NCBI RefSeq assembly: GCF_964355755.1
Contig: NC_092672.1
Location: forward strand, 19,543,237 to 19,607,236
Origin: Antedon mediterranea
Lineage: Eukaryota; Animalia; Echinodermata
Reading direction: 5' to 3'
DNA length: 64,000 nt
The position numbers and the translations under genes were made by a program. The notes beneath the pieces are model-generated. The model did not search any database. It was not told the origin of the DNA and worked only from the letters and a program-made list of their open reading frames with translations. Below, piece after piece: positions 3,001 to 62,887 of the stretch (the first letter of the stretch is position 1; every line of letters begins with the position of its first letter).

Positions 3001-6000
3001 TTTGATAATGCATTTTTTCTCATATATGTATAATTTTCTAACAATTTGAATAAAATAGGTGTTTATCAAGTCAATACTGTATTCAAATTTAGAAACAGCT
3101 TAATCACAAAATAATGGGATCATTGTGCACTTTGTAATATTAATAATTCATTATATGATGTATTGATACTTTAACACTTCTTTATTGTATCTTGAACTTT
3201 GTTGTTATCATTGATACAATAATACATGAATCAAATGTCAACAATTATAGAGCATTCATATTAACAGTTAATGTTGACTGATATGATTTTACTGTACCTT
3301 TCATCTCATCTTGAAAATTAAAAAAGTAAATAAAAATTAATCAAATATTAAAAATAATTTAAATATAAAGCTGATGATATTGATTGCAATTTGCCTAATG
3401 AGGTTTGATGATGAAAATAAGAATTCAGCAGGGTGAATTTTCAATGCGAGATGTAGGCATAAGTAATAATAACCTGTCATTCTTTTAAAATACAAAATAA
3501 ATTTGCAAATTGATGGTAAATACCATTTTAAAAGAGTTTATATGAAAGTATTTGTATGAAAAAATTGAATTATCATATGCATTTATTATTTTTAGAATGG
3601 ATCAACACCTCTGATTGAAGCTGCAAATAGGGGTTTTCACGAAGTCTGCTTGGTCCTTCTCAATAAGGGAGCTGATGCAAATCAACAAAACAAGGTACTT
3701 TCACACATTGTATTTTAAAAATTTTTAAATACATAGGTGGACAGTACATACTAATAACAATTTATGTTTTGTCATTGATAATGGGATTGTAGGATAATTC
3801 AAAATTATTACTAGTTCAAAATCTAGACTAGTAGTATATTTAATTTGTTTGAAAATGTATACCACAAATATTTGTTGACATGTGCACAACAAATAGTTTG
3901 TTTATTTTGCCTAATTTATCACTCAACTTTGTTACTCTATTTTGTAAAGAAATTAATCAGAGCCTTATCATTAAATGTTTACATTATTTATATGCAGTAT
4001 GTTTATTTACATATTTCTTGGTAGCAGAAATGAAGCTCACCTTATTCTGTCATATTTCCTCACAGTGGTTTGAATTCAGTACATTGCATTTCATATGCCG
4101 TTTCTTATACCTTACTGTACTGTATATTTTTCCCCCTTGACCATAACAAATATTTAAACTTCAATTTAAAAAAAACAATTCTTCTTTTCTATTGTTTGTA
4201 GAATACTGATACTACTATGTCTTGTCACTCAATAAATATTATTTACCACCAAAAACGTACATTGCCTCATACTTACCTATATTTTCCGAGAACTTTACTT
4301 TTACCTGGAAAATGATTTAAATGAAAAGAAGAATAATTACCCAAAAAAGGTGAAAATCATTATGTAGTTAAATGTAATAATGAGGGCACAATTATTGTTG
4401 TTATTTTTTAGCCATTTCATGCATGGATTACCACAATGCTTTCTTATTTATGTTATAATCTGTTTTTAAAAATGATTTGATAATAAATATCTGCTAATTA
4501 ATTAATTAATGTATGTTTAAAATAAAAAAAAACAAAAATGAAATTAATTCTAAATAGGCCATGTGGTTTTTCTTGGTCAGAATAGCATATAGCTTGTTAG
4601 ATTGAATTAATTAATGGAGGTTTGCGCAGGGTTTTTGGGGTTTGTGCAGTTTAGCAATACCCCTGTGTTATTGATCTTGATCATCAAGTTAGTGAGGGTT
4701 TTAATATATTCCTGTCAGTCTGAATGGCAATATGCTATATGGTGACAAAAATAATAATACATAGCCATGTCCTATATTGAATCCCAAATTCATAAGTTTT
4801 TATGTAGACTTTGACAATATTATTTGCATACAAACCAGCAGCCACTTCCAGAAATGAGGCACTTTTGCGCTACCTAACAGGTAAAAGGCAACGCAATAGG
4901 GGGCGCAATTGCGTTTGCAAAGGAGTTCACAATAACACTAGAAGCTAAGTTTCTCAAAGGTATGACCCCTTTTAGCAATGGGCTTAGCATCCAGTGAAGC
5001 TAAAATCCTCTCTAAAATTGTGCGATAAATCGTGACATTTTGATGCCGGACATAACTACTAATTTCACCCCATCATTTCCCACACTTGTGTTACCAAGTC
5101 CTTGGTAATATACCTCATAAATGCTGCACCTCCCCGTATGGAAATATTTAACAGTGGCTTTTATATTCATACAGCAGAAACTGGATAACAAGATATGAAG
5201 CAACAAACAAAAATTTATATAAAAATATCTTACACAAAGAATGAATAGGTTCACATTAAAAAAAACTTATACATTCACTTTGTGATTGGCCATTGTATTG
5301 GTCTAAGTTTAAAAATGACTTCACAAGCTTTGTTCAATCGCATTTTAAAAATAAACTTTCAATGAACAATTCTGATAATTATTAGAACTGTGCATACACT
5401 GGACTTATACAAATGCACAGATTAATTGTTTGTTTTTTATAATCGTCTACCGACTACTGTATCATGTAAAACTTTTAGGTTCCTTACTCCAAACATGACT
5501 TTGAGTTAACAACTCATAAACTATTATTTTTTTTATTGTTGAAAGAGAAATTGAACTTGAATGTATCACCTGGTTTCTACTTACCGTATACATCCTTGAA
5601 ACTCATCAAGATGCAGATACAATCACTCATAAAGTTATACAATTTATTGTAATACTTCCTATTATATTGTATACGCATATTTCTTTTAATGCAAAATCAA
5701 TCTGCAAATGTTGCATGGTTCTTATCATCAGACCAGGTACATTGCACCTACTTTTATTTCATACTTTTTTCAAACTCATTGTCAACAGTTCTTAAACAAA
5801 ATTGACTTCATTGTCTGTTTAAATATTTTGATTTTGATTATTATAATTTTTGATATGAATTGATTTTTTGTAAAACAACATAATATTAAGTACGATCTAG
5901 TGAGTGAGTGGCCGAGCGGTTAAGACAGTGGAACCGTAATTACGTAGCCATAACATCGGCAGGGGTTCGAGGCTCACTCACTCCATGGGTCTGGTGGTAG

Positions 6001-6178
6001 AACGAGTCTTCTCGGATAAGGACTATAAACCGTAGGTCTAGTGTACACATCTAGCTCGTGTGCACTTTAAAGAACCTAGTACATCTTTCGAGACGATCAG
6101 TAGGGGGTTACCCCGGTGTATTAGTACATCACAGCCACTGATCACCAACTGGGCCCTCTGGGAGATCAGTCTTTGACT
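1..6178 (+). repeat. Recent segmental duplication, copy 1 (extends beyond window start)
   Basis: Colinear with 27415..33592. Only three substitutions noticed by eye (585/27999, 5675/33089, 6166/33580). Confidence 0.97.
3596..3694 (+). CDS. Ankyrin-repeat exon A (99 nt, phase 0/0)
   Basis: ttttag|...|gtactt; NGSTPLIEAANRGFHEVCLVLLNKGADANQQNK, one canonical 33-aa ankyrin repeat. Confidence 0.93.
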
Positions 6179-9100
6179 GAAGAGGTTACCCAGTATAAAG
6201 ATAAAACAAACAAACAATGTGTTTTTTGTTTACCGTTTATAATTACATTTTTAAACAATAATCCTTCAAATTCTAAATAGCCTATAGGCCTGTAACTTAC
6301 CTTACAAAATACTTTGTACCTTTATTATCATAAATATTCTGATAATAAATGTTCTGATCATGTTATTTATAGTTTACCCATTAGTCTAGCCTAGCTTGAC
6401 TGTTCCTTCTTCATCCTCATTCACCGCAATTTTCCGAATTAGGCCTAGCCTTGCACACAAAGCAATATTCATAATTATATTAATTATTATTATATTATTA
6501 TTGAGTATGGTGGTGTGATAAACATTTTAATAAATATATGCACAAAATAGTTTTCACATTGTGTCTGGAGAGACCAAAATAATAATAATATATATGCCTA
6601 GGCCCAGTAAAGCTTAGTATCAAAGACCTAGCCTACGTAGGATACGCACGGCGGGGGCGGGTGTGGTAGGCTAGACTGATGAGGAAGGGGGAGGGCCGGG
6701 GAGTCTGGCAAGGCAGGCTGCTGTACCTTTTTGACTTGCAATGCTACACAAATATGAGCTTCTTAATATCATATAACCATAACATCTTTATTATTTTGTC
6801 TGTTTTTGTTATTGGATGCATCCATACATATGGGGAATAGAAAGTGACCGCAATTAGGGCAAGGCGCCTGGGGGTAATGAGGTATCAAACTGACTGATTG
6901 TACTGTGAAGTTTTAAACTATAATTGTAACAGGTATTCTGTATTTACTAGTATAAGATATGTTTTTATTCAACTGTGATATTTTATGTAAAGGTTGTCAT
7001 TTTGTTTTTTGTTTTATTATTAACAAAAATGTGCATTTCTCTAACATATTTATTTTTTAAATGTTAAATAGAATGGCGATACAGCATTGCATGTGGGTGC
7101 AGGATATGGTCATGTCGATGTCTGCCAAATGTTGGTAGACATGGCAGCAGCAGTGGACCAACAAAATCATGTAAGTCATAAATTAATTTTTGCATTGAGA
7201 ACCATTCAGGATCAGAATCCTAAATTTTATTCATTTTAGTTTAAAATGCTTGTTCCTCAAACAGAATAGCACAAAATGTAGCCTAAGAATGTAATTATTT
7301 TATTATGGTATAGAGGCTACTTGTTAATACCTTCATATTTTTTTCTTATTTGAAATTTTTATTAAATTGTCTAACTATTCTACATCTTGAATTTAACATA
7401 TTTATACCATCAAGATTGTGCAGACAAGTCAACATTAACAAAAAAAATAAACAAGTTTAAAATGCTATTTTTTGGGCTATTAAAAAGCTGCAGTTAATCT
7501 AGCAATCATTTGGTGGATTACTGTAATTTAGTTATTCTCTATTAAATAAATGTCATGAAAACTATAGCGCTTAGATTGCTTAGTGCTTGAAGTTGCTTGT
7601 TGGTATGACAACTACAACTAATGCAGATCCTGCATTGTATCTGTCTCAGAATATTCTTGTTTAATCAATCTTTTTTAAACTTTTTTAATCATTACATTAG
7701 TAATGCTCATTTTAATACACGATTAAAATATTATTGAATGCATTTCATGCATTTCTCATTTGTTTCATGCTGCACAATTTTGATGTGTCAGGCACGTGTC
7801 TGATGGTAATGGTATCTTGGACCTTGTGTGAATGGATAAAAGGCAAACAACTTTGGGGAATACATTTTTGTTATACTGATGTTGTCACAAAAGTTTGTAG
7901 TTTTTCTGATTTCAGGATATGTTATTTGTAAAGTAATGGCATAAAATTTAAACTGAATTCAAATTGAATCAAATATTAAACTTCTTCTTCTACTAAAATG
8001 TAGAGTAGACATTACTCTATACATTGATATAAAGAATTAAATGTTTGAACAAGAAAAACTGTACTTTTAGCTATTTTTTTATCATACCCTACCTAAAATT
8101 GTTTAATAATCTAGAACTCAGTGTTTTGTTAACTTGTGTTCGTACATATTCATAGCTATAAACATGTGCATAACGATGCTTAAATTAAACAGAGTTATAG
8201 GCCTACCTATTATATATTATATATGAGAATTTTATATAAATCATACTGTAAATTATAGAAACAGTGCTCATATTCGGAACATAATCTCATAATAGCTCAT
8301 TGGCGAAAGTTCCATACTTTTTAGTTGTATGAAATAATGTCTCTGGCGGGATTCGAACATGCAACCTCTCGCTTACAGAGCGAGTATCATACCACTAGAC
8401 CACAGAGCCATATATGTTATTTTCACAGATTTTCTCTCATACAACAAATGATATGGACATGTTCATTATTTAAAGATGTATTGTCCCCCTGAACAATTTT
8501 TTTTTACATTTTTTTGTTGATTATGCCATTTTAATATCATATAATAGTTATCAACTTTGACCAAAACTTGGATTGGAAAAAAAATTATTTACCTGAAAAA
8601 ACTGTAATTTAAAGCAAACAAGTCAAATTGCCTGCCAGCCAATGGATTTTTGGTTTGGTGTCATTGTAGTGAAAACATGATTTTTTCTTCGTTTTTTTCT
8701 ACGCAATTGATTAACTTGATTAAAACTACAAATAACCTATGAAAGTCTGATGTAATTATTCTTCATTTTTTCACGTGGGGGACAATACATCTTTAAAAAA
8801 ACATAACCTAATGTCCTTGTTCTACATGGAACCCCCGCAGTTTAAACGCGGACAAAACCACAGAAGAATAGCTTCTCTTTGTTGAGCTATACTTGCTCAC
8901 TTTATTTCTATCCATCCGTTCATCCGGTAAACTAAAATAAAAACAAACAGAGAAACAATTGACACGGCGCCGTGAAGCACGTCTCTAACGTATACTACGG
9001 CTTATCATACATAATTCGCCGTTAACATGGGCATACTATCATCATTATGTCTATCAAACCTAACTAATTCATAAGTAAATAATAATATAAGATTGTCTCC

Positions 9101-21100: not shown

Positions 21101-24100
21101 AAAAACTGGAATAATAATAAAAATGTATACAAAAGTAGAAATAAAATTTAAAAAAGCTAATTTGATAGTATTTGTGTGCATTGCGTATATGATCACAACA
21201 CACACAGCAAATACAAGTTACAAATTGAATTTGAAAATTGACACTTAATGGATGTATAATTATATAAAATATTAATTAACCAATAAATATGTAAAAGATT
21301 AACTTGTATGATTTTATATTTTAGTTTGGAGAATCAGCTTTGCATTGGGCAGCTAAGGCAGGTCACTCAGCCTGCTGTAACCTGCTGGTTGATGCAGGGT
21401 CAGACATCAGTATCCAAAACATAGTAAGTTATACATTCTTTCATAGTCATATTTTTTGATATTTTGTATTTTAAATATAATGATCTTTTGAATAATAATA
21501 TCTGCATGTTATAATGCTATTTAATGTTTTTATTTAACTGTATTGATGCTAGAATTGGCATTATTTGAAGTTTTTCAATATATTTTTTTCTCTGATATTT
21601 AGTCATAAAAATTGCTATGACACTATACATTTTGTCATGTTTAAACATTTCCATTGAACTCTTTATAAAACAATAAAAACTACAGCAACATACTATTGAA
21701 ATATAATCCTTATTCCAAAGTGTAGATATACAGTAATTAAGTCGGAATTATGTACACTTCTATTACACAAAATTTCAATTTTTTTTAGTTCATTTTCACA
21801 AAACTGTTTAATAACTTTTGAAACACTATGATTCTACCTATATATCACATAGAGGTACAAATGATCAAAGATGCTAGTTGATAGACATATAGACTGTATT
21901 CATTTATTTTATAATTATTATCATACTCATTTACCTTTATTCCTTTCAACAACATCACCACCAACTCCAACCACCTCCTGGTTATAGTAACCACCACCAA
22001 TCCCAAGAATGATGATGCAGAATTTGGTTGAGAGCTAAAGTGATCTTTTAATACACACCACAATTATAGTTCTTTGTTATTAGGTTGTAATTATTTTTTC
22101 CATATACAATATAAGATACAGATAGTATATCTGCCACATTTATTCTTTCTTTATACTCAGGATTAACAAACATAAATAAAACTGAAATAGCGGCACAAAT
22201 ATAATTTTTGTAAGTTATTTACCGTACCTAGTTTTTAACAAATCACCTTACATAATAATTACAGTATCAAACCACCATTACAATGTCATACAAAATAAAA
22301 AAATAAACAAATCATCATTAGCATAACTAGGTGATGATTGATCCATAGCAATATTTTTAGTCTATTTAAAAAAATGTTTATTTCTTAAAATTTATTTAGA
22401 TATACATACACACATAGTAAATTATAGTAAACAAAAAATAAATGGAAATTGTTTAACACTAAACAACCTACATTAGAGGTGAAATACCACTAAGAAACAC
22501 AAGAAAGCTGAACTTAGACTTAAATGTTCTACACAACTGTAACAAGTTCAGAGTGTATCCAACATTTAACATTATGACATATTTTAGACCACTGACAATG
22601 GTGATCACCAGTGCTTCGCAAAGTCTGCAGTTGCACTTTATATCATGTTTTATTCATTCATATTTATCTCCATCATCCAACTTTATCAAACAAAACCTTT
22701 TTGAGGATAAACATACAGTAGCTATATGTAAGGTTCAACTTTAATAATTTTAAAAAGTTTAACATTTTCTAACATTAATGTTAAAAGATTACTTTTAAAA
22801 GAACTTATATTATAATTTCAATTTTCAGTACAAGCTATTTAACAATTAAAAAAAAATATATGCCAAGTTATTGTAGCATAACTTTATATTTTAATCAATG
22901 GATGTAAATGACTTTGCATTATATAAATGTATTAGAATTGTTTATAAACTCTTAATTGTTGTAGATTCTATTTCAGTACAACCTTTTTTTAAAACTAATA
23001 TTGACCTTTGTTCATCCTTGTTTCAGTTTGATAGTCCTACCTTTTCAATAGAATTACATTCATGTTCACAGAGTAAATTAAGATTTATCTCCTTTAAAAT
23101 TAAATTCAATAAAACTATATCCCATAACAATTTTCCTATGAATAAATAGATGGAATTATTCTTAGTTTATTGATTTGATTCAGACCAATTTCATACACAT
23201 TTAGCAATATTTGTTTCATTTTTTAACTAATAATATGCATAGAAAATGTTTATTTTACAACTACAATACCTCATTAAGTAATTCATTTATTTACTTTTTT
23301 ATGGCTTTAACTAGTTGAATTCTCTCATGTTACCAATATAAAGTCTTAATCGGTAATAAATTTCTATTGATCATACATTCTAATAAGTTATGTTTCATAA
23401 TTTTTTTGATTTTATTGTGTTACAATAAAGGAAAAATAAACGGTGTGGGAAAAAACATAATCAGATGACTAAATATATGTAATATAACGTTTTAATACAT
23501 TTCTGGTGTTTTTGTGCAACTTCAAATTTTTATTTTTGTGCTATAGTTTAGTAGTAAACTAAATTTATCTTCCCATTTCCACCCTTTAAGACAGAATAGT
23601 CCAACTTCCCTTCCCCTGTAGTAGAGCACCGTATCAAGAATGTTAAATAACAGACAAGAGACATAAAATTGCTTGTCTACATACACTTTATTCACAGTAC
23701 ACATATGGCTGAATGCATATAACAACATTACTATAAGCCCAACAACTGGGAAACCTTTAACATGTGGCTTACCTTTCATTGGTCATGCTTTATAACAACC
23801 TACCTTAAACCCCTGCGTTAGCGGCTAAGGTAACACCAACCCAGCGAATGCTATGCAGTCCAAATAGATACTTATTGTACCCACATCTTCGTAAAATATC
23901 CTTAAACAGCACGGCAGCGTGAATAGGACATCTTTCTAGCATGTGGCTACTAGTCGATTTCACTGACTAAATAGTGCTAATGTGGTTCCATGCCTTCTAC
24001 TCTCTATATCAGCATGTATAAAGACCCAGGTATCGTGTCCAACAATAATGTCCAACCACCAATAGTTCTTGATAGTTCAAACACTGAATTATTTAATATT

Positions 24101-39100: not shown

Positions 39101-42100
39101 AATGTACTATTAGGTTAGGATATATGAGTATTGTGAAAACATGGGTTTTATATTTTATTTGCATTAAAGTGATTGTGTTGGAAATAGATTAACATCGTTA
39201 CCATTTAAGATAGTTAAAACAAATTATTTTATCACATGTGAATTATGGAATTATTTTTAAGGATAAGATAAATACAGCGTCACACTTGACATTCTTCTTT
39301 CACAAAAAAAAAATTAAACTTCATGATTCATTTTTTTTCCACAGAATGGAAATCCTCCACTATATGAATACCTGATTGAAAACCCCAACCCTACTCCAGA
39401 AATTGTGAAATTTCTCATTAAAAATGATGGTGCATTATTGACATTGCTAAATAAGGTAATCTACAGAAAATTGTTTGAAATTGCTTACATAAATAGATGT
39501 AAATTTGATGCAGAATGATGAACTTTGAGGACGGTAATTAACAGAGCTTGACGTTTATTTCGTGACAAAAGTCGGCATCTTCCGCAGACCCTGTGCACTC
39601 AAGTTTAGTGTTTGAGAAGTTTCTGCATTAGAAAGTCTAGATCTTATTAAAAAGGATAAACTAAAAACGCCCAATTAAAACCTTAAAAGAGGCATACGAG
39701 GATGTTTGTTTATACTAATATAGCTAATGTCAAAAATGTAGAAACACTAACAGCTTTTAGTAGTAAATAAAAAGTCAACACCAGCTATGTAGAATCGTCA
39801 ACAGCTAATAGTAAGGAAATTTCCTCACAGCTAATTAGTTACTAATGCTATTATGTAAAAATATATATTTTACAAACCTATTTAAGAGCCATTGTCTGTA
39901 AAAATCAAAGATTTGGTGGCAGATGTAAAAAAATGGATTTCTCTCAAATTTTTACCATGAATAGACATTTCAATAAAAAGCATATCTACAACATTCATTT
40001 TAATTTTTAGCCTCCGTTGCCATGACAACGGTCAATTATCCAAATTTTGATGTTTTTGCCATTTTTCACAGATTTTCTATAGTGAAAAAGTACAAACTTG
40101 TATACTTATTCTAACCAAAAATACTTACAGTATACAGTTTTTGTTTATAGCAGTGTAAACAACATGTATTGAGTTCCATTTAATGTAGAAAAAAAAAAAA
40201 ATTACAAAATGGAGTTTGGTTGATACCATTATTTTAAAAAGGGGTGTTTTTAAAAAATATTTTTTTTATAAAAGTATACCTCATAAACGTACCTATAACT
40301 TCCAAAGTGGTGTTTTTAAATCAATGAGGTTTTTTAATTTGATAGTCAATAGGTTTGTCAACAATAATCACGAAAAAAACACTGGGGTAAATTTCGTACA
40401 TAGGTTTTGTGTTGCCAGGAAAATACAAAAAATACAAAAAATATAACAAAATATCAACAAACAAAACACATGAAACACAATTTAAATATGGCTAATTCAA
40501 TAATAAAATGTATATATGGCTTGTCATAATGCTACTAGAGTCATACGAATAGTTTAGATAAAATAGGAGAATGTGTTGCCAGGTTTATTTCATTTAATTG
40601 CCTGAAAAACAGTATTTTGCATTGAAATATTTAGTTGATGGAAAATAATGTTAAACTTGGAAATAATTGAGTCAATGGTTTTTATAAATTTTTAAATCTA
40701 TTTTGTGTAAAGAGATACAAAGACCTCCCAAAAAATCTGACCTTGTAAATAGGTCATTTGAGGTCAAAAGGGGTCAGAATGCAAAAACAGGACAGGTCCC
40801 CACTTTACTACAACTATTAATGTTTGATCAAAATTTACAAGATAGTTCATAACAATTCTCAACAATTTTTATATTTTACCTATAGTGTTACCTTAGCAAC
40901 CATTTCCATGTGTAACTAAGGAAAGTAATTTAAAAAAAAAACGTAAAAAATGGCGTTTTTATAAATACAAAGAATTGATTGCATTTGTAATTTTTCCCAA
41001 TTTGACTTCTACTGCATTCCATTAATGACAAACTTGACCTTGTAAATTCATTCATTTTGAGGTCAACATTTTACCATAGTAACTGTTTCTATGCGAACAT
41101 TTAAAAAAAATAAGGGGTTTTTCATAAATACAAAACATTTTTTCTACATAGTTTTACATTTCTACTTTTTGCCAAATTTACTTTAAATACTGAATCCTAA
41201 TAATCTCAGAAAGAAAGTCTTGACGAATCTGAATAAAGGTAAAAAAGCGTTTAGTGTTATCTTAAACCTGTTTACGTAACAAATGATATTTAAATATGGA
41301 GTTTCATGAAAAAAAAAAAAATTTACATATTGAGGTAAAATGACATCAACGTTTTACCTATAGTGTATTGTAGCAACTGTTTCTATAAGTAACTAAGTAC
41401 AATATTTTTAATATGGGGTTTCATGACTACAAACAATTGAATACATAGCTTTACTAACTTCCCAAATTTACTTATCTACTGAATCCCAGAAAATGTCTGA
41501 CCTTGTGAAAGGGTCATTTGTTGGGTCAAGTTATGTCAAAATGTATTATTTATGTTATCTTAGAACCTGTTTCTATGCGTAACTAAGGATAATTGTTTTT
41601 TTTAATACAGTTGAACCTCCCGTAAGTGGCCACCCTCGGGACCTGGAAAAATGGCCGCTTACGGGCGGTGACCCCTTACGGGAGGTTCTGCCGATAAAGG
41701 GCCAAAATCACTTATTATGGCTATATACGATATTCTTAACGAAACGAGCGTCTCAATTTTCCAGCTAATTGTAGGCCTATTATTATTTATAATCAGGTGG
41801 TTTAGTATTTTTTAGCATTTTCAGACAAATTTTAAAAACTTTTATCATATAAAAAATGGTCGGTCAAAATCTGTGTAGTTTTCTCATCTCTTCACAGTAA
41901 TGTTTTTAAAACCTCTTCAAAATAAAGCTAATATATAAAGAAATACAATAAACATGCACCTCTAATTCATAGGTCCATGCAATAAGTATCACATTTTTCG
42001 ATTGGCCGCTTACAAAAAATCTCATTTTTAGTATAAAAAGGTGCCCGCAGCTGCTTACGGTAAGCACCAAATGCACTAATTAGATAGGAAGAACAAACAG

Positions 42101-45100
42101 GCTTTTCAAAGTGCGTCCGTTAAGGGAGGTGGCCGCTGTAAATAAAATATGGGGTTTTCATGAATAAAAATAATCACAGAAGAAAGTGCTTACGAATATG
42201 ACCTTGTGAAACGGTAATTTGAAAATGCAAATAAGGCATGCCTGCTAATAATCTACAAATTTAAATTTGTATGAGATAAATATGCAAAATCTAAAGAATA
42301 TCTCATTTTTAGTTACCATAGTAACTGTTGCTATGCATAACTAAGGGAAATGAAATAATTATCAGATAATTATTAATTAATAATTAATAATGAATCCAAC
42401 CATCACAGTAAAAAAAATATAGAATTTAAAACCAATATTTAATAATAAAGTGTGATATTTTACATGCTGACCTTAAATGAAATGAAATTTCAAATCAGGG
42501 CTTCAATATTTGTTATGTAGCATTAACATACCTGAGTATATCATTGACTTTTGATTGGTTCTATTTTGGGGAGGGGAAAGTGGTGGATCAAGGACTTTTA
42601 AATAGTTAGGAGGTTAAGGAGGGTCTAAAAACTTTATGTCCTATCTTTTGCATTGCAATTTTTAACTTGGGGTGGGTGGGGGCTTGGAGAAAGGGGGAGG
42701 GGTGGGATGGAGGAGTTTGAATCCGTTTATTTATTGGGGCGATGGTAGCGGCAGTGTGGGTGGTGCTTGAATGCATGCATTTGACACTCTATAGTGGATG
42801 ATCGACCAAAGTGTTGCAGTTTATCTTTTTGTGGTTATAGTCGGGGGGGGGGGGGGAGAGGGGTGGTAGTCGAAAGTGGTGGTGGATGGGCATGTGGGAT
42901 CTGCTTAGGTTAGCAAATAAAAGAAGTAAACAAATGAAAGAGGAGCTTCAAAATAAGAGAGGAGTAATCTGTTGCAAAGATTAAAATTCACAACGATCTG
43001 ATAATTTATTCAAATTTCCAGAGAGGATATAACCTATAAAATAAAATTAAAACTGGGAATTACAGAATCTATAATTAAAAATTAATTTTTTTTCTCACAA
43101 CACAACTAGAACTATATAAAACATTAAGAATTTTTCTGACCAATGAGTTTCAAATCAAATAATCAAAGAAAATAAAATGTTTTTACTAATATACCATGTT
43201 TTTTTTTATTATAAAAATGCCTATGTTTCTCGCAACACTGCTTGTAGATTTTAAATTTACCCCAGTATTTTATTTTAGAAATCAATTATTAAACATTAGA
43301 ACTACCTATTTGTAATAAATCAGCTTAAAAAATACACCACTTTGGGCGTTATGGTGAAGTAAAGTTTAGTTGCATTGAACAATTTAAAAAAAGTGAAAAA
43401 CACCCCTTTTTAAATAAATGGTATCTCCCAAAGTATAAAATAAAAAATAAATAAAAAAATTTGAAACAGGTACACAAGGCATTGTTATTATGCATACACT
43501 AATTATTTTTTATAATTAAATGAACAACACAAAAATATCGTTCATCAAAGTAGTACCAATATCCATTTTAAAAAACCTTAAAAAAGGACAAAATTTGTCA
43601 AAAACACAAATTTGGCCGTTGCCATGGAAATATACGTGTGAAATAAAAAATACTTCATATTTGATTTCTCTCAACACATATGTAGCCATGTGCAAAATTT
43701 GAAAGAAATCCATTTTTTTGAGTCTGCCACTTTTTTTGATATTTCTTTGATTCTTACAGACAATGGCTCTTAAATTTGTGCAAATGCATCTCTTTACTTT
43801 ATAGCTATCAGTCTATCCACTTCTCGTAAACGACCAATTTTCTAAAACGACCTTTATACATCTTAAACAATCTCCCTTAATCGACCACCTCCTGTAACGA
43901 CAACCTCTCATAGGTAACCACCTCTTTTGACGACCACCATCTCTGTTAAGTGACTGCTTCTCATAGTCGACCACCACTCGTAAGGGATCACCTCTCTTAA
44001 GCACCACACATCTCCTAAGTGACCACCTCTTTCAAGGGACCACAACCTCTTTCTTAAGGGACCACTTCGACCACCACAAAAGGTAGGTCTATGGTGGTAG
44101 CCAAATATACAATTGTAGGGGTTTTCTGTCAAAACAACTGTGCACTTATATTTATTTATCAAATTCAAACATGTAAAAGCTCCCTTATATTATGGGATAA
44201 AGAGACCGACTTCCCATTATATGGTTAGTGTAGTATGTGGTGAAAATTTAACACCCAATAGAAAATTGCTATTCTTGCTTTTACCGATCAAATAGATAAA
44301 AGTTGGTTTGTCCGCCAGCAGCTTTTCTCATTATTAGTATAGTATTACTATTTATGTTTGGATTTATAGATCTTGCCTACTACAGAACAGAGGTAGTGTT
44401 TTGGATCTTGGTGTCTATTAATTAATATGTCTTTGTAAATAGCTTGTTTAAGTAAAATATTTTTGTTTTTAGGAAGGAAAGACACCTGAATCTATTGTAG
44501 AAACAAGTATGAAAATAACGAAAAAAGAAAAAACTGTGATTTTAAACTATTTTGACAGTAAGTAAAGTTTATAAATATAAATTATGCATTAATCTAAGAT
44601 AGGCAAACACAGTGCAAAAGCTTTAAACTGTAACCTATCCTACCTATCTGAAATGTTTCACAAAAGGTAGGTTCAAATGGTCACTACAGTACTTCCAGAT
44701 TTGATTCACTATAGTTACTTCTAGGTGTCACTTTCTCTGTGGTAGTTTTTTTAAGATGTTTATAACAACACTCCAAATAGAGTGTGGCACAGGTAGTCAT
44801 TTGAAATTATCAATGCTACTATTATAAATTTTTAAATTTTACTTCATAAACAAACTGTAAGGTGAATATTTTTTTATATAAGCTGGCAGGCTTTATTTTT
44901 CTGTTTCATTCCAAATGAATGGAACTCAATTCTCTGGATCCAGCCCAATCAATAGCATAATTGTACATGGATGCCACTATTTTATCATGTTAATTGACAT
45001 AGTTGGTTTAATATATTTGTATTAATATTATTGTATTGATGGTACTCGGACATAATTTATTATTCTTAAGGTATCATTTCCCAAGGTTCAAGTTTACCAG

Positions 45101-48100
45101 GGGTATTATATTATTAAAGTTGACGAGAACTATTGTACTGTATATGAGATGACATTTATTTTACTGTTTAATAACAAAATAATGTTTTGCAGTAACCCGT
45201 GCTCCGTATAGTCTTTTTCTGCCTTTATATGTGGTTATATACTAATTCGCATGGGAGAAGAAAATATAATAAAAATGCAGTCTTCCCTGATAAAAGTACT
45301 CTGAAATTTATTTATTTTTTTTAATTGTCAAGAATAAAAATTCAGAACTATTTACAGCCATTGATTTTGCTACACAAAATATTCCTTTACTTTGAAATAT
45401 CTGTAAGCTCAAAAATGAAAGCAATACTGGATATGGGATTTTACGAAAATAACATTAAAAAAAAACGTAACATAAACGTAAAATACCAATCTATATTTTG
45501 GGTGTATTTTTCGTTGTGTATTGTTTGATATTTTGTTTCTTAGTTATGCTCAGAATTAGTGGTCACATTTACAAATAAAAAAATGGGACATAAATCGAAT
45601 GAAAAACACGCCCTAAATCCGAAATATTGGGATTGGTTTGAGTGTGTTTATTTTTATTCATTTACATTTTTTTTTATTTCAATTGTTTTTGATATTTTGC
45701 TATTTCTTTGTGTGAGGTTTGGTATCTTGCTAGTTTTTTATCTTTTGCTTTAAGTGGTGCTTATTTACACATATCGCGTAATCGAACTTAAATGTACCAT
45801 AAGCATTGATATCATTGCCACGGCGTTTTACTCACTGGGCCAAACCGTGATTTACGAAAATCATTCTGTTCAAAGGATAAGTATAATTAATTAAAGCGAC
45901 GCGATCATTCAATATGGTTATTTGGCTACCGAGACTAAACACTGTTTTAATTTGGCGGCCCGGCATGGTGTTTGTAGATCCGGCCATGGTGGTACACAAC
46001 AGAGGAAGTTGCGTAGTTTATACAGTGACGTAACATGGTCGCTGCATGAGACGTCAAATTACAGTTATTTTTTGCCTTTTTTAGTGTTTATCCTTAAAAT
46101 TTAGGAAAGTGACATAGCCTATTATGTGCGGCCCCAATTTAGTAGCATTAATATATAGATGATAATATGAAGCATTTTTAAGGCTTACAGAGGCTGATTG
46201 AGATATTTATTTTTTGTCATAATAGAATTGTTAGTTCCTGCAGAGATACGTGCCAGGGGTAAACAAGCTATTAAAATATATAAAGAAGAACTTAAAACTG
46301 GTAGCATGTCTGTTGTGAATTCAAGATGTATGTTTCTAGGAAAAGAAGGTGCTGGCAAGACTAGCTGTGTAAAGGCTATGGTTGGAGAAAGGTAAGAAGT
46401 AAAATGGTATATTGTTTATATTACGGTATCTTGCTGTGTATTAACCATCAACCATTTTAGTGATCATTTTAAGATTTTAGGCATTCATAGTTTAAGCTTC
46501 TTAATCAGAATGCTAAGAAATGCTTTGTGAATGGTAAGTGAAGGCATTCAGCTTTGGTAAGGGAATGTTTAATTTGAATTACTATACACTAAGGGTAACA
46601 TTGTAGTATTTTAAATTATGATTCTTATTAAATAATAAAAACATTAATTTTATTCACTTTAATTTACTTTTAATTAACTTACTATAAATGTTCTATTTAT
46701 TTAAAATTTATCAGTTGTTTTATGATTGGAATGTATATTTAAATGCAGTCTCCTTTTATGATTTAGTCATTTTATACATACTTTGTATGTGTCTAAAACG
46801 TACAATAAATGTTTAACTTTACTATACAATGTTATAATAGATTCAATTCTGCAGAAAAATCCACAGATGGAATCGTTACAACCACAGTGTTTCAAGCAAA
46901 GAAGGATTGTAGTCAATGGAAAAAGATAAAAGATGTAAATGGTGAGAAAAGCAACTGAAAATGTTAAATTTTACATATTCATCATTTTGCTATAATTTTA
47001 ACATTAATTTATTTTTGATAAAATAATACTAATTTTTAAATAAAAACATTCTTAAATGTATAATATAATGCCATTTATACATTGGTTATACAACAAATAA
47101 CAATTCAAAATTCATTTGGCTATGCAACCATTACGTCTTGGTCTTCTATTTTCAAAGAGGTGATTGAAATCACCTCAGATACCAGAAATTGGAAAATTAC
47201 TGTCAATGTTCAGAATATTGCTTATCATTGTATTCCTCTCATCCCATACAACACATTGGTTTCCTAATCTAATTGTCCATTTCTTGCTTTGTATAGGTAT
47301 TGACCTATCAGAGCAAATTCGTTCACATGCTTTAGGAGAAAAGGTTGATAAAAGGTTACAAGAAGGTAGGTACAGACTAATAAAGCTTTTATAACATTTA
47401 AATCTGCATAAAAGATGTATAATGATATTGATCAGTAACACTGTTATATTGGTTTTGTTTCTGTAATTTTTTGTAGAAGGCAATGTTGGAACCTGGGCTA
47501 AATTTAAGAATGGTATGTATAAGATGGTAAGAAGAAAAGAAAAAGTGAGTGACATAACTAGTGTATGGGACTACGCTGGTCAACTAGACTACTATATAAC
47601 GCACAGGGTATGTTTTCATTATTGTATTATAAATATCACATGTATTCTAAGGGTCATATTTAAAACAAATATTATTTTGATTGGGTTCAGAAATAATTAA
47701 ATTTGAAGTTCTTAAATACTATTAGACCTTTTGTATTGATTAATTGTTGATTAAAATAAGAAGAACAGACTTTATTTTTCTTTTTACATAATGTGTTCTT
47801 TTGCCAAGAACATTTTTAACAGGGTTATTTTATCAATGTGCAACTTTTTTTTTAGACTATGCTATGTTTTTGTTGGTTTTTCTAGTTCCATTGATCTTAC
47901 ATGTTTCAATTACTGATTTTTTTTTATCACAAGTTTTCATATAAAACATCACCAGGGGCTGATCCAGGGGAGGGGACCACAGGGCATTTGTACCTGTCAA
48001 TATTGTCAACAGTAAAAAGAGAGGGTGGAGGGCAGAGTGGAGTAGATGTGGGAATGAGGAGGTTAAATATATTATTTAAACATCGTCAGTAAACAAATCA

Positions 48101-60100: not shown

Positions 60101-62887
60101 TATTATAATTACAAAAAATATAAACGACGTAGAGGTGTATCGTTACATGAACTTTACTATTTCAATCGACTATAACAGGGACAGTTTTAACAAAGTATTA
60201 AATCGCAAATGTTCTATTTAGTGAGACAAATCTCATGACACAAAATACATGAATAAGGTCCAATGTGAATGGCATAATAAAACAGTGTATCCTAGTGAAT
60301 AGTTAATTTAATAAACTAGATGGTACGCTCGCTTCGCTCGCGTACCATCTAGGTCGTGCCCACAGATGGTTCTCGAATACACAGTAATTTCAGCGTAAAA
60401 AAATGCTTTTTGTAATGTACGTACTGCAGGACGATAATAGTTATTATTGTTTACAGAAACGAATAAATAGACACGATGATTTATGTATTAAACTGAAATT
60501 AGCACACTGGGAATTACTTCCGAAAGAGAAACTTGTCACAAAATGAGTCCAAATTTGTTATTTGGACTCATTTAAATAAACCCAATTTGTGTTTTGTGTG
60601 TAACATTAGTTTTGAGGGATGGGGAAGAGGATATGGGTACAAAGAAGAACAATGTTTTAATATATTATTTATCTACACAGTAACGAAATATGTTTTTCAC
60701 TTTGACAGGCCTATAAAATAATATACCACTTGATACAGTAACACATTTGCGATTTAATACTTTGTTAAAACTGTCACTGTTATAGTCCATTGAAATAGCA
60801 TGTACATGTAATGATACACGTACCACTACAACATTTATATTCTTTGTAATTATTAATTAATACAAACGTTGAGAAGCAACTGTCAGTAGTACAGTTTATT
60901 TGTATATTGTACGTTTTATATAACAGTAGGGCCTACTCACAGGCCTATAAATAATATACCACTTGATACAGTAACACATTTGCGACTTAATACTTTGTTA
61001 AAACTGTCACTGTCATAGTCGATTGAAATAGCATAGTACATGTAACGATACACGTACCACTACAACGTTTATATTCTTTGTAATTATTAATTAATACAAA
61101 CGTTGAGAAGCAACTGTCAGTACTACAGTTTATTTGTATATTGTACGTTCTATATAACAGTAGGGCCTACACTCACAGTAATACGTTTATTTGTACATGA
61201 TTGTGTTATACATCTAACTGTACCCACACTCAAATTCAATGGCGACCACAAATGTTAATACGTATTTACAGTAATGTCCAAGTATTGCAATACTTATCTA
61301 TAGGTTTTAGGTTAATTCCCCAAGGGCCAATAAATTTACCTACAGCTGGTGGTACTTGCGTTAAAGCAAAGAGTTATTATTGGAATGTTCCATTCATCGG
61401 AAATCAATACATTTGTATAAATGTATATTAAATCTATCAAAATAGTATGTTTTTAAGAAAATAGGTCTGTCTTCAACATTATGATGCTGTACTCGAGCTG
61501 TTCAACCGGTTTTCATCCATTAAAAACAATTATCGTAGGAGGAGATAGGAAAATGCGAAGCATCCTCGTATTATTGTATGCGGGTATTTTTCAAGATAGA
61601 CATGCATTGGACAGTGTATACCACGATCGGGAAAACACCCCTATTTGGGGCAAATCGTTGAACCTAAATTCGTTTTAAACGTCAATAACTAATTATCGAA
61701 CTCCATTTAATTAGTAAACAGGGTTACATCAGGTGGTTAAAATCAGTATCGAAAGTATGAACCAACTTTATATACCATCGAGTAAACATTCTAGAAGTAA
61801 GGCGCGATTTACCGAATTTTGCCCTTACGTAAATTTATATATAGAAACTAACAATGTGTATTGAATAAATTGTGATACTGTTTTTATGACTTTTATTTTG
61901 TATAGATACTACTACTCCTCTGGCTACAAGCTCATTACAAACAGGTTAGTTGGTTATCATTAGATCATTAGAGATCCTTGGATAGGGTAGTGTTACAACC
62001 ACTAATGTAGAAAATATTAGCTAATGTTGAAATGGCAATAGCTAAATGTAGAAATAACTTACTCATATGTAATTAGTACCAGTTAAGGTGAAAACATGCT
62101 TCACAACTATGATGAAACTACTGTTGGGAACTACGTCAAGAAACCAGAAGGATAGATACATTATGTGAAGTTAAATGTATCTGGGATAAAAACTAAGGAG
62201 ATTCACTTTCAACTACCATGTCTGTGTTTTGGGGATATTAATTATCAATATAAATTTTGATCTCATTTCTGGAATTCATCATGCATACAGACATATTCAA
62301 TCAATGATTCAACAACTATGATAATTATGCTAATTATCCTAAATTTATTTCACAATATTGGAAACTTGCTTTTCTTCAACCATGTAGATTTCTCGGAAGA
62401 TAATTTCAAACAGTTGATTGCAGACTTTGCAAAATGGTTTGATGATCGTGGTCTCCTTAACAGACTACAAGTTCTATGCATAGAAATAGTAGATGACATT
62501 GAAGAGTTGAAAAGGGTTACCAGTACAATCAACCTGTTAGCTCTTTTAACTGCAAATGGACAATTGAGTCAAACAAATCTTTCTGTCCTGTATGATGCAA
62601 TAAAAGTAACGAAACAATTTGGCTTTCAGTCGGTCATTAAAGAAAAGCTTCCTGCTTTCAAAAATATCAAGAAGCGTAAGGTAGCATCATTTTCACTACG
62701 AGCAAAAAAGATTTTTATTCTTGGAAAAAGTCTTAGTGATTCAGATATAGAAGCTGTTGATAGACGATACAACTTCCCTGTCCTTAAGGAGTATACAGAC
62801 AGCTGGAGTCTGCTTTTGGACTTTGAAACCCGTGGGTTGCTGAATGAAGACAAAATAGAAGAGGTTAAAGAGGTGTTAAAAAGATGA
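3596..62887 (+). CDS. Multi-exon ROCO-family gene, 5'-partial: ankyrin repeats - Roc GTPase - COR - linker - tandem DED-like domain (~1055 aa in window)
   Basis: 21 AG/GT-bounded exons with compatible phases join into one open frame of 3168 nt ending at TGA 62885-62887. Roc G1-G4 motifs and COR motifs occur in the correct order. No start codon in the window. Confidence 0.9.
5902..6217 (+). mobile_element. tRNA-derived SINE with Deu/Nin-like central domain
   Basis: A box TGGCCGAGCGG, B box GGTTCGAGGC; core CTCGGATAAGGACTATAAACCGTAGGTC...TTAAAGAACC...AGTAGGGGGTTACCCCGGTGT resembles the Deu domain as I recall it; (AAAC)n tail. Confidence 0.85.
7072..7170 (+). CDS. Ankyrin-repeat exon B (99 nt, phase 0/0)
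   Basis: aatag|...|gtaagt; NGDTALHVGAGYGHVDVCQMLVDMAAAVDQQNH. Confidence 0.93.
8339..8409 (-). pseudogene. tRNA-like sequence (tRNA-Pro-like body); pseudo-tRNA or SINE head
   Basis: Revcomp GGCTCTGTGGTCTAGTGGTATGATACTCGCTCTGTAAGCGAGAGGTTGCATGTTCGAATCCCGCCAGAGAC. Anticodon stem perfect, acceptor stem 6/7, T stem 3/5, C at position 33. Confidence 0.7.
8474..8792. mobile_element. Kolobok-like MITE (319 bp)
   Basis: Perfect 16-bp TIR AGATGTATTGTCCCCC / GGGGGACAATACATCT with TTAA on both sides; 5'-RR terminus. Confidence 0.85.
9345..11446 (+). repeat. Older duplicated intron block, paralogous to ~24340..28180 (and to 70..765)
   Basis: Long colinear similarity with substitutions and indels; differs by lineage-specific TE insertions. 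Confidence 0.9.
9684..9805 (+). mobile_element. HINE/Helentron-associated short element
   Basis: Inserted in a T-run; subterminal IR AGTCCCGTG/CACGCGACT; (GTCY)n-like microsatellite; ends GGCCTTG-TTT. Absent at the paralogous site ~26538. Confidence 0.75.
13093..13190. mobile_element. Small PIF/Harbinger-like MITE
   Basis: Imperfect TIR GGCCTTTCACACAG / CTATGTGAAAAGGGC followed by TTA; internal CGGCAATAATA repeats. Confidence 0.55.
13800..14420 (-). pseudogene. Decayed LINE ORF1-like (L1 ORF1 RRM / Transposase_22-type) remnant
   Basis: Frameshifted minus-strand pieces MEAELLRVERHSRCYSLRFGNIKE / QLVKDIFKTDLGLNNILIE / NAH*TGK / RHIIIYRR resemble E-x-R-S-R-R-x-N-L-R...AHR...PR-x-I-I. Confidence 0.55.
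16825..17360 (+). repeat. Older duplicated intron block, paralogous to ~33770..34125
   Basis: Shared TTATATTATCAAGGTTC...GTCACGTATCCATGGTGATTGTGATGACAGGCCCAGACTC...GCATTCCTATAA; the second copy has an internal deletion. Confidence 0.88.
20524..20621 (+). mobile_element. HINE-like element, same family as 9684
   Basis: TTT-AGTCGTGTGC...GTCGGTCGGT...GCACACGACT...GGCCTTG-TTT. Confidence 0.7.
21325..21423 (+). CDS. Ankyrin-repeat exon C (99 nt, phase 0/0)
   Basis: ttttag|...|gtaagt; FGESALHWAAKAGHSACCNLLVDAGSDISIQNI. Confidence 0.93.
23641..24044 (-). mobile_element. Possible solo LTR
   Basis: TGTT...AACA ends, ~400 bp, higher GC, minus-strand AATAAA near one end; TSD imperfect (AGAA/ATAA). Confidence 0.3.
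24572..26455. mobile_element. Non-autonomous foldback DNA transposon with ~530-bp inverted arms
   Basis: Ends AGTGGAGTCTGTTAGGG / CCCTAACAGACTCCACT. Arms ~24572-25412 (interrupted) and ~25925-26455. Empty site visible in the paralogous block at ~9590. Confidence 0.9.
24966..25270. mobile_element. Nested palindromic element in the left foldback arm
   Basis: ~80-bp-arm hairpin 24969-25130 centred on CGAGGCAAAGCCGAG, plus a second IR 25131/25270; missing from the right arm. Confidence 0.8.
27415..33592 (+). repeat. Recent segmental duplication, copy 2
   Basis: As above; the ORF track is also duplicated at offset 27,414. Confidence 0.97.
31010..31108 (+). CDS. Ankyrin-repeat exon A' (identical copy of exon A)
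   Basis: Same sequence and splice sites as 3596..3694, offset 27,414. Confidence 0.88.
33316..33630 (+). mobile_element. Same SINE family, copy with a different 3' end
   Basis: Identical to the 5902 copy until ~33579, then a substitution, a short deletion and an (ATTTCA)n tail. Confidence 0.85.
35160..36060 (+). repeat. Older duplicated intron block, paralogous to ~985..1980 and ~28400..29395
   Basis: Colinear similarity from CATCTACCCTGTAT to GCCTATTATATTATTCTTAAT, with indels. Confidence 0.9.
36386..36560. mobile_element. hAT-like MITE (175 bp) with 5-bp TSD
   Basis: TIR CAGGGAAAAATTTC / GAAATTATTCCCTG flanked by TAAAG direct repeats. Confidence 0.7.
37731..37841 (+). CDS. Atypical 37-aa ankyrin-repeat exon D (111 nt, phase 0/0)
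   Basis: ctttccag|...|gtaata; AGNTPLHLHLAPIYKDPTLEMVTCLINKGASVTSQNK. Confidence 0.9.
39345..39455 (+). CDS. Atypical 37-aa ankyrin-repeat exon E (111 nt, phase 0/0)
   Basis: ttttccacag|...|gtaatc; NGNPPLYEYLIENPNPTPEIVKFLIKNDGALLTLLNK. Confidence 0.85.
39886..43769. mobile_element. Large non-autonomous Kolobok-like element (3.9 kb)
   Basis: TTAA TSD; TIR GAGCCATTGTCTGTAA(A/G)AATCAAAGA; patchy inverted similarity for ~550 bp; degenerate internal repeats; no transposase ORF. Confidence 0.85.
41608..42138. mobile_element. Tc1/pogo-type MITE nested in the Kolobok-like element
   Basis: TA|CAGTTGAACCTCCCGTAAGTGGCCACC...GGGAGGTGGCCGCTG|TA with repeated GGCCGCTTACGG motifs. Confidence 0.6.
43810..44080 (+). 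repeat. Degenerate ~18-bp GACCACCTCT..TAAG array (MITE subterminal-type repeat)
   Basis: A dozen or more diverged GACCACCTC units. Confidence 0.6.
44473..44557 (+). CDS. Ankyrin C-cap/linker exon (phase 0/1)
   Basis: ttttag|...a|gtaagt; EGKTPESIVETSMKITKKEKTVILNYFD; phase matches the next exon. Confidence 0.85.
46226..46391 (+). CDS. Roc exon with P-loop (G1)
   Basis: LLVPAEIRARGKQAIKIYKEELKTGSMSVVNSRCMFLGKEGAGKTSCVKAMVGE; pre-Roc P-x-E-I-x-x-R-G motif plus GxxxxGKT; donor ag|gtaaga. Confidence 0.95.
46841..46941 (+). CDS. Roc exon with switch I (STDG)
   Basis: phase 2/1; FNSAEKSTDGIVTTTVFQAKKDCSQWKKIKDVN; donor g|gtgaga. Confidence 0.9.
47297..47365 (+). CDS. Roc insertion exon (phase 1/1)
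   Basis: gtatag|...g|gtaggt; GIDLSEQIRSHALGEKVDKRLQE. Confidence 0.75.
47477..47607 (+). CDS. Roc exon with G3 motif
   Basis: EGNVGTWAKFKNGMYKMVRRKEKVSDITSVWDYAGQLDYYITHR; matches Roc WDFAGQxxYYxTH; donor |gtatgt. Confidence 0.92.
48645..48893 (+). mobile_element. CR1/L2-type LINE 3' end (5'-truncated)
   Basis: RRNSFSFRVVLLWNGLSDYVVSASSLNLFKNRLNEAW matches ORF2 C-terminal F-x-x-R-V-x-x-x-W-N-x-L...F-K-x-x-L; ACAAGTA-type tail. Confidence 0.8.
49491..53300 (+). repeat. 89-bp minisatellite, ~43 copies
   Basis: Unit AAACATACATAGCAATACACATCATGTCAAGTTAGTTCCCGCAACATAGGAACCACAGTCCTGGTAAGGGTCTGGTATCACAGTGTATA, head-to-tail with no spacers. Confidence 0.98.
53608..53697 (+). CDS. Roc exon
   Basis: ttccag|FFLTNTVSYCVAFNVMDNLDEPAKPRGSKI|gtaagt; continues the TH-x-FFLT Roc consensus. 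Confidence 0.92.
53812..54000 (+). CDS. Roc exon with G4 motif
   Basis: GQLGMTNLDMNFFWIRSIYEH...SPPICLVATHVDKLSGTASEKEEE|gtaaat; Roc W-x-x-S-I and V(G/A)THxD motifs. Confidence 0.93.
55008..55142 (-). mobile_element. LINE/SINE 3' tail with stem-loop
   Basis: Hairpin GAGGGACTACA...AGGCCC-GAT-GGGCCT...TGTAGTCCCTC (55099-55142), minus-strand AATAAA and (GAAT)n tail. Similar tails at ~2326-2460 and ~20105-20230. Confidence 0.55.
55277..55519 (+). CDS. Roc end (G5 region, VDN) and start of COR
   Basis: VMKMYKKMF...MYMVDNT...EGITKLKR...REVPVKWVNLQESL...CITFEE|gtaaag; P-x-x-W at COR start. Confidence 0.9.
55708..55902 (+). CDS. COR exon
   Basis: VSRIGTKCEISEEGLDTAIEYMNDIGIILHSSTNKKLKNTVITDLKMMIQMVTKVITV...; resembles COR AL-x-F-L-H-D-L-G-x-I-L...V-I-x-D pattern. 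Confidence 0.88.
56071..56232 (+). CDS. COR exon
   Basis: KQMRVLWKRLDEEGMLEERLLRYLWKHE...EVMKTFSLLFEKLK|gtaagt; G-x-L...L-W...M-x-x-F-x-L COR pattern. Confidence 0.9.
56439..56726 (+). CDS. COR exon
   Basis: ctgcag|VTEGNRVFLVPSRMK...DFLPNAVYNTLVV...KHALK|gtttgg; F-L-V-P-S and F-L-P COR motifs. Confidence 0.9.
56957..57037 (+). CDS. COR C-terminal exon
   Basis: cctcatcag|LEITYLTEVDGNVRDQMNEPQPSFCIE|gtaaag, phase 0/0. Confidence 0.82.
57548..57758 (+). CDS. End of COR with Cys/His cluster (phase 0/1)
   Basis: VLRYLKHQLKTVLVTREGVGYNLCVLCTACNPAEKPHLHDLKKCL...VKCGNERMITNHLKRLFLE g|gttagt. Confidence 0.88.
57983..58000 (+). CDS. Possible 18-nt phase-1 micro-exon (GETSSS)
   Basis: Donor cag|gtttgt at 58000/58001. 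AG at 57981-2 gives an open frame; the stronger CAG at 57974-6 gives a 24-nt exon with in-frame TAA. Confidence 0.35.
58072..58618 (+). repeat. ~43-bp minisatellite, ~13 copies
   Basis: Unit TGATAACATGAAACTATCAGTATCCAC(T/C)TAAGATA(n); one further partial unit at ~58954-58984. Confidence 0.97.
58619..58953 (-). mobile_element. Penelope-like element 3' fragment (GIY-YIG C-terminus plus hammerhead-like motif)
   Basis: Minus strand 58952..58839 reads LYADSTFKFKVKSALHISWSKPSLNKQIYNLGVTLAI* (K-E-A-L-H-I-x-W-x-K-P-S-L-N-K-Q pattern), followed by CTGATCAT-GAGAA-TATT-TTCTC-GAAAC-ATGTC. Confidence 0.78.
59443..61853. mobile_element. 2.4-kb foldback element with long imperfect inverted arms
   Basis: TGTTAGTATCTATATATAAATTTACG...CGTAAATTTATATATAGAAACTAACA; inverted similarity continues ~750 bp; internal ~234-bp tandem duplication (60706/60940); central 13-bp hairpin at 60316-60352. 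Confidence 0.88.
61906..61944 (+). CDS. 39-nt phase-1 linker micro-exon (DTTTPLATSSLQT)
   Basis: ttttattttgtatag|...acag|gttagt; symmetric phase 1, open frame, S/T-rich. Confidence 0.75.
62388..62887 (+). CDS. Terminal exon: tandem death-effector-domain (DED)-like module
   Basis: FKQLIADF...LNRLQVLCIEIV..IEEL...INLLALLTANGQLSQTNLSVL, then FSLRAKKIFILGKSLSDSDI...SLLLDFETRGLLNEDKI. Both halves follow the DED helix pattern of caspase-8/FADD/FLIP. Longest ORF in the track; phase-1 acceptor catgtag. Confidence 0.78.

Follow-up and report, generated by a model that had tools for sequence, protein, structure and literature searches.

A crinoid ankyrin-ROCO gene that appears to have exchanged its tandem-DED tail on a near-identical Roc-COR switch

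Proteins that join a repeat sensor to a Roc-COR switch and an effector have been published as immune candidates in several lineages. In bacteria, LRR-AP-GTPase(Roc)-COR-effector proteins are read as counter-invader systems (Kaur et al. 2021, PMC8195603), and the text of that paper describes a repeat sensor, a Roc-COR switch, a variable C-terminal effector and several paralogs per genome that differ in effector. The crinoid gene analyzed here shares this plan and differs in its ankyrin sensor, its animal host and its tandem-DED (tDED) effector, DED not being among the effectors named in that text. Trichoplax ROCOs (Civiero et al. 2014, PMC4104024) likewise form an expanded animal Roc-COR family that combines repeats with death-fold or TIR domains; the text and legend consulted name TPR and LRR sensors and CARD, Death and TIR domains, and no ankyrin or DED. 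Brown-algal LRR-ROCO immune candidates, as portrayed in the texts of PMC3341825 and PMC11378527, resemble the crinoid gene in having one repeat per exon, clustering, and birth and death of genes. Their LRR exons are of phase 2 and under positive selection and they have no death-fold tail, whereas the crinoid gene has phase-0 ankyrins and an apparently exchanged tail. In the texts of PMC5094078 and PMC9334734, repeat-ROCO-effector immune candidates are also proposed for sea anemones and Aplysia, respectively. The novelty that an earlier note on this DNA attached to an NLR-like ROCO receptor was therefore overstated, since the idea had been in print for all of the lineages just listed.

Two further systems are close in other respects. 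Invertebrate DED-NACHT-LRR NLRs, in the account given in PMC2575513, also fuse a DED directly with a repeat sensor and a nucleotide switch, with a proposed adaptor bypass, but they use a NACHT ATPase in reversed domain order, whereas the crinoid protein has a Ras-like GTPase with COR. DAPK1 (kinase-ANK-Roc-COR-Death) shares the placement of ankyrins before Roc-COR and a death-fold tail. Unlike DAPK1, which is single-copy, the crinoid family is expanded, shows no kinase and carries a tandem DED where DAPK1 has its Death domain. Our literature search returned neither a DED-bearing ROCO nor a description of any ROCO from crinoids, although figures and supplements (Kaur 2021 Figure 6 source data, Civiero 2014 Figure 1) may list DED fusions. 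As judged from sequence comparison, the new point at this locus is tail swapping on near-identical switches.

The window, by which we mean the whole 64,000-nucleotide stretch of Antedon mediterranea DNA analyzed, is animal-type DNA with short exons (30.6% GC). Its joined frame 3596-62887 (+) comprises 21 exons and 1,055 codons with 0 internal stops; introns are GT-AG in 20 of 20 cases, with compatible phases throughout. Position 3596 is base 1 of an ankyrin exon and the stop codon closes at 62887. No start codon was found in the window, the 5' end of the gene lying upstream of it. The gene runs from six ankyrin repeats through a cap, Roc (G1-G4 intact), COR and a micro-exon linker to a 165-aa tail. 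All of the ankyrin, Roc, COR and tandem-DED parts described in the earlier note were recovered on the + strand where it had placed them, with the motifs as written; the cap exon (44473-44557) and the 39-bp linker micro-exon (61906-61944) are additions to its exon list. The features are as follows.

3596..3694, + strand: ankyrin exon A1, the first exon of the window; 33 aa, phase 0-0, AG/GT ends, Pfam Ank E 8.7e-8
7072..7170, + strand: ankyrin exon A2; 33 aa, phase 0-0, Pfam Ank E 3e-7
21325..21423, + strand: ankyrin exon A3; 33 aa, phase 0-0, Pfam Ank E 1.7e-8
27415..33592, no strand assigned: duplicate segment, a copy of window positions 1-6178 (6,178 bp) with 3 mismatches; contains A1'
31010..31108, + strand: ankyrin exon A1', an exact copy of A1, whose Pfam Ank score stands for both
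37731..37841, + strand: ankyrin exon A4; 37 aa, phase 0-0, family-type, Pfam Ank E 5.1e-5; matches P0015 and P0022 repeats
39345..39455, + strand: ankyrin exon A5; 37 aa, phase 0-0, family-type, Pfam Ank E 0.026 (sub-cut-off); 65% to P0015 repeats
44473..44557, + strand: ankyrin C-cap exon, phase 0-1; agrees with the first residues of P0011 at 15 of 16 positions; followed by Roc
46226..46391, + strand: Roc exon with alpha-0 helix and G1 P-loop GKEGAGKT, from the motif and alignment to Roco structures
46841..46941, + strand: Roc exon with G2/switch I STDG, from the motif, aligned with prokaryotic Roco structures
47297..47365, + strand: Roc insert exon, phase 1-1, from the P0011 alignment
47477..47607, + strand: Roc exon with G3 WDYAGQ, from the motif and structure alignment
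53608-53697 and 53812-54000, + strand: two Roc exons with G4 VATHVD, from the motif
55277-55519, 55708-55902 and 56071-56232, + strand: last part of Roc, then COR-A; single-exon Pfam matches to COR-A with E 8.3e-7 and 0.005
56439-56726, 56957-57037 and 57548-57758, + strand: COR-B, the last exon ending in phase 1; Pfam COR-B only E 0.11
61906..61944, + strand: linker micro-exon, 39 bp (13 aa), Ser/Thr-rich, phase 1-1; its kind is repeated in P0015, P0042 and P0071
62388..62887, + strand: terminal tandem-DED exon, a single 500-bp phase-1 exon encoding 165 aa and the stop

The Roc-COR part aligned to the A. mediterranea RefSeq model P0011 at 94.5% over 642 aa, far above chance, and the alignment crosses all core junctions, which supports them. 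For the last intron, one contig from the public run X5 jumps 443 bases with GT..AG ends, exactly as predicted from linker to DED exon (depth 16.7, 26 letters on the short side, matched at ≥90% likeness). The earlier claim that the DED exon joins the upstream exons is thus borne out by one spliced contig, which could come from a close paralog. X5 is a run guessed to be RNA, probably correctly, none of the runs being recorded as such, and it also contains intronic sequence. The joint from linker to DED exon was not found in the three other runs compared beside X5, nor were spliced joints in 44000-63900 among the 15 matches listed for the four runs. Positions 62186-62293 had zero cover from any of the four runs, so that no DNA contig bridges the last intron; this uncovered stretch may be a private insertion near the presumed exchange point discussed below.

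Class assignment follows from the core. Roc with G1-G4 is present and COR stands directly after it, and by this defining tandem the protein is, at the sequence level, a ROCO. The Roc of P0011 is 97% identical to that of the window and passes the Pfam Roc cut-off. Exon 55277-55519 is 99% identical to P0011-P0014, and the whole COR is 91-97% identical to those of P0011, P0013, P0014 and P0016, which pass the Pfam cut-off. PDB matches of the Roc part were, best first, Methanosarcina and Chlorobium Roco, then LRRK2. An arginine required for GTPase activity in prokaryotic Rocos, its position located here by alignment, is apparently Met in this protein, which counts against the immune-sensor reading set out below. 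Pfam scans of the window and the family proteins gave no match to NACHT or NB-ARC; the protein may work in an NLR-like way and is not an NLR, its switch being Roc-COR.

The protein is not an LRRK, since the LRRK1/2-type kinase after COR is absent and COR is followed by the 13-aa linker, the DED exon and the stop. It also falls outside the DAPK tail type: in place of the single C-terminal Death domain of DAPK1, the tail is a tandem DED. A kinase could in principle precede the ankyrins, as the gene's 5' end lies beyond the window, and two Atlas neighbor clusters are auto-named 'DAPK1-like'. DAPK1 itself is described in the text of PMC6337361 as a kinase followed by Roc-COR and a death-fold tail. 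We nevertheless consider a DAPK-like protein with kinase exons upstream of the window very improbable. Pfam found a kinase in 0 of 70 family proteins (8 of the 78 fetched lay outside the scan), no kinase motif occurred in the 78 proteins or in the window's six frames, and seven family models (P0017, P0022, P0026, P0031, P0037, P0046 and P0067) begin with Met and the ankyrin cap; the tail, again, is of the wrong type. The description 'kinase-less' in the earlier note holds for the 70 scanned proteins and is only probable for this gene, whose 5' end lies outside the window. Of the three outcomes that the note had listed as refuting its reading, none occurred, an upstream kinase being judged here from the family proteins and the window.

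The sensor end is built from one ankyrin repeat per exon, all six in phase 0-0, and five of the six exons pass the Pfam Ank cut-off, the exon at 39345 being weak (E 0.026). The two family-type ankyrins share 58% identity with P0015, compared with 81% for Roc and 80% for COR, and on this comparison the ankyrins appear to diverge faster than the switch. Among 26 family-type repeats from seven proteins, columns 1, 8, 11-13, 15 and 16 vary most at the protein level. We take these columns to be the ankyrin binding face and its loop; variability at such columns is common to all ankyrin proteins and is not specific to immunity. On its right, the 6.2-kb duplicate stops within the 3' end of a short, tRNA-like repeat element (about 5896-6200 and 33310-33610), which we read from its boxes as a SINE. 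A tandem duplication of 27.4 kb that took in three ankyrin exons, possibly repeat-mediated, would suit this arrangement and would be tolerated by phase-0 ankyrin exons; a same-haplotype assembly error is also possible. A false haplotype duplicate was rejected as the simple cause, given 3 mismatches against hundreds between samples in 20 kb. Older duplicated intron segments (84-97%) also lie among the ankyrin introns (9803-11445 versus 26538-28179, and 1146-1978 versus 35279-36061).

The earlier note expected paralog expansion and diversification, and both were found. A profile of 10 Roc-COR rows gave 58 matches among 7,994 scored, 25 from A. mediterranea, 27 from Anneissia japonica and six distant, so that 52 of the 58 are crinoid, with varied tails; all counts refer to 90% clusters of computer models, many of them partial, and are not gene numbers. 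The tail search matched 10 of 1,738 candidates and a search with one Roc-COR exon 18 of 30, all from A. mediterranea; the three word-index searches reach close relatives only and sample the range beyond crinoids poorly. By sequence, the window gene belongs to an expanded crinoid family present in two genera. The lineage expansion and variable effectors by which repeat-ROCO-effector immune candidates are recognized are both found in it. Ankyrin, Roc, COR and DED occur together in the single models P0022, P0026 and P0025, and Anneissia has Roc-COR-DED as well as ankyrin-Roc-COR models. Several tDED clades occur as tails on Roc-COR. In other models COR is followed by Death (P0032), by a double Death (P0053) or by HEPN (P0034), and P0028 carries ZU5-UPA and two tDEDs. 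An intact G1 was seen in 33 of 64 crinoid models, the remaining ones possibly being just truncated. Atlas neighbors of P0022 include mollusc, sponge and arthropod clusters, indicating that ankyrin-Roc proteins are widespread, with no DED among the neighbor families listed.

Some family members depart from this plan. In P0017 the ankyrins precede two complete Roc-COR units, each from a different subfamily, and the C terminus is hydrophobic; this may be a fused model. P0054, P0056, P0057 and P0061 form a second crinoid ROCO group with an N-terminal tDED and, in three of four, a death-type C-terminal domain. Two tDED units of different clades (four DEDs) are present in each of P0004, P0005, P0009 and P0010, which are candidates for adaptors bridging tail types.

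Folded from its single sequence, the window tail gave a pLDDT of 40, and a usable AF2 model was obtained only with a 24-row alignment (pLDDT 90.6, pTM 0.85). Among the 25 Foldseek matches listed for this model, all were caspase-8, cFLIP or vFLIP DEDs (E 3.6e-4 to 8e-4, TM up to 0.74). An independent aligner (VIA) placed the caspase-8 tDED on top (Z 15.3, rmsd 2.7 Å, 155 residues, 17% identity), with the best non-DED row at Z 7.8. Pfam matched the tail weakly (DED E 7e-5, below the cut-off); a first DED profile run against PDB sequences matched no DED, and later profiles gave weak matches. By its modeled fold the tail is a tandem DED, in agreement with the two-unit DED C terminus that the earlier note had proposed. 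It shares the two-DED fold of caspase-8, cFLIP and vFLIP (PDB 4zbw, 8ym5, 2f1s) and, unlike these, is C-terminal and not a prodomain, with V-L and R-R at the FL positions. In the profile alignment to FADD and cFLIP these are V28-L29 in DED1 and R125-R126 in DED2, a register that rests on a weak but locally gap-free alignment (E about 0.05; cFLIP E 0.046). The window tail has no RxDL. Its stop codon aligns with caspase-8 residue 166 of 183, which leaves DED2 without its last (sixth) helix; other crinoid tail subtypes are 9-16 residues longer. Across 42 family domains, two of them partial matches left out, F-L was found in 2 of 40 DED1 and 0 of 39 scorable DED2 units. One X1 contig continues at 62322 after reaching 62982, as would be expected if in another animal the cassette with the DED exon were tandem or flank-sharing.

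Caspase-8 depends on the FL motif of DED2 for chain extension, and chains stop growing when the motif is lost, according to PMC3477315. Because this motif is absent (R125-R126), the window tail, as modeled, would probably fail to lengthen a chain of the caspase-8 type by the usual route. R125-R126 and the absent last helix accordingly weaken the suggestion in the earlier note that such filaments are nucleated directly. The same residues would suit a FLIP-like brake or decoy, in which the tDED takes an incoming FL and cannot pass the chain on, and the GTP switch controls filament capping. The best fold matches include chains of cFLIP and vFLIP, and Atlas neighbors include a 'v-FLIP-like' cluster (score 0.92). 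We think this function unlikely. The FL motif is missing in all crinoid tail clades, DED-only proteins included, which suggests a different binding code; VIA scored caspase-8 at 15.3 and any FLIP at ≤12.2, and cFLIP itself retains the FL motif.

Phylogenies of COR and tail placed the window gene with different relatives. In the COR tree (38 rows, leaving out 27 of 67 matches shorter than 230 aa and two long outgroup rows), it grouped with P0013 and P0014 (support 100/99), adjoining P0011 and P0016. In the tDED tree (40 rows), it grouped with P0001, P0002 and P0003 (97/92), far from the tails of its COR neighbors. Identities follow the same split: 97% in COR and 17% in tDED to P0013, 96% and 17% to P0014, and 92% in COR and 25% in the tail to P0011, against 29% in COR and 74% in tDED to P0002. 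Two other pairs behave similarly (P0020/P0028, COR 88% and tDED 24%; P0021/P0018, COR 86% and tDED 29%). AU tests against congruent groupings rejected both (p 7e-71 and 8e-15), values that are descriptive only because the groups were chosen after tree inspection. COR and tail of the window gene thus appear, by these comparisons, to have opposite ancestries. The linker micro-exon is of the P0011/P0042 kind, from which we infer an exchange point in the last intron. The window tail clade also ends ZU5 (P0003, P0010), HEPN (P0008) and DED-only (P0004, P0005, P0009) proteins, and occurs with COR fragments or distant Roc-COR in P0002, P0006 and P0007.

Mapped on the COR tree, tail type changed 11 times, with a minimum of eight and 14-19 in 500 shuffles (26 labeled rows, nine types). 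Swapping, as read from these sequences, is real, yet tail type mostly follows the COR tree, which counts against an immune sensor with freely swapped tails. Mis-joined models in tandem clusters could explain some swaps among relatives; the window's own mismatch of COR and tail was read straight from DNA, not from a computer model.

An unstable tandem cluster might also have produced the gene as a by-product, a recent chimera that is transcribed and has little selected function. This exact COR subgroup with this tail was found in no A. mediterranea model, the 6.2-kb internal duplicate is near-perfect, many family models are partial, and in the DED exon 16 of the 24 listed differences from other samples change an amino acid (alleles and paralogs mixed; 40 of 111 rows). 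Set against this are a frame that stays free of stops and frameshifts through 21 exons and 59 kb, intact G motifs, the pairing of COR with the window tail clade in P0002, P0006 and P0007, and the occurrence of the architecture in two crinoid genera. On this evidence, a chimera of little function is quite unlikely.

The reading that we prefer, with about as much reason to accept as to doubt it, is by analogy an intracellular immune sensor whose GTP switch, set by a ligand, would dimerize the receptor through COR and so bring its tails together to recruit a DED protein that fits them. In its favor are the expanded family with varied tails, the swaps, the faster divergence of the ankyrins, the spliced joint in X5 and the counter-invader reading of the same design in bacteria and brown algae. 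The variable ankyrin face would bind a microbial or damage ligand, and binding would shift the Roc GTP/GDP cycle. COR-mediated dimerization would then pair two tails, as in Chlorobium Roco and LRRK2, from which the dimer cycle is taken as outlined in PMC6337361. Partners of the paired tails might be DED caspases or DED-only adaptors of the P0004, P0005 and P0009 type, contacted elsewhere than at the FL motif used by DED2 of caspase-8, and exchange of the last exon would re-route the output. DED2 without FL (39 of 39 scorable) and the absent last helix in the window subtype count against this sensor. A bolder extension, tentative and on balance doubtful, is that of combinatorial crinoid immune receptors: duplicated and shuffled single-exon ankyrin repeats at one end, and single-exon tDED cassettes traded among Roc-COR, ZU5-UPA, HEPN and DED-only proteins at the other, would form a private, non-canonical DED address code that connects every sensor with an adaptor of its own, without the caspase-8 FL chain.

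The same architecture might instead serve as a non-immune, LRRK-like scaffold, with a host Rab or membrane protein as the ankyrin ligand and a DED tail that acts in development or regeneration. DED proteins have roles outside immunity, and the LRRK2 ankyrin domain binds Rab29, as stated in the text of PMC6337361. Lineage-specific expansion, divergent repeats and tail exchange with HEPN and Death are not expected of a housekeeping protein, and we regard a scaffold as improbable.

If the immune-sensor reading is true, an animal employs a kinase-free Roc-COR of the LRRK2 type as the switch of a receptor whose output is read simply through death domains. This would offer a direct route to what the Roc-COR GTP cycle does alone, which is still debated for LRRK2. 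Echinoderm immunity would gain a large gene family that has apparently not been described before, along with a class of tandem DEDs without the FL motif. Genes that match at 96-97% in COR and have unrelated tails are natural controls for output re-wiring.

Rfam and ARAGORN together found one tRNA-like element, resembling tRNA-Thr(TGT), in an intron at 8337-8410 (-; 45 bits, Rfam), and nothing else linked to the gene. The intron before the linker exon carries high-copy repeats and two tandem arrays, one of 43-bp units in 12.6 copies (58072-58619) and one of 234-bp units in two copies (60705-61170). A larger array within a Roc intron (49490-53302) repeats an 89-bp unit 43 times, with 96% identity between copies.
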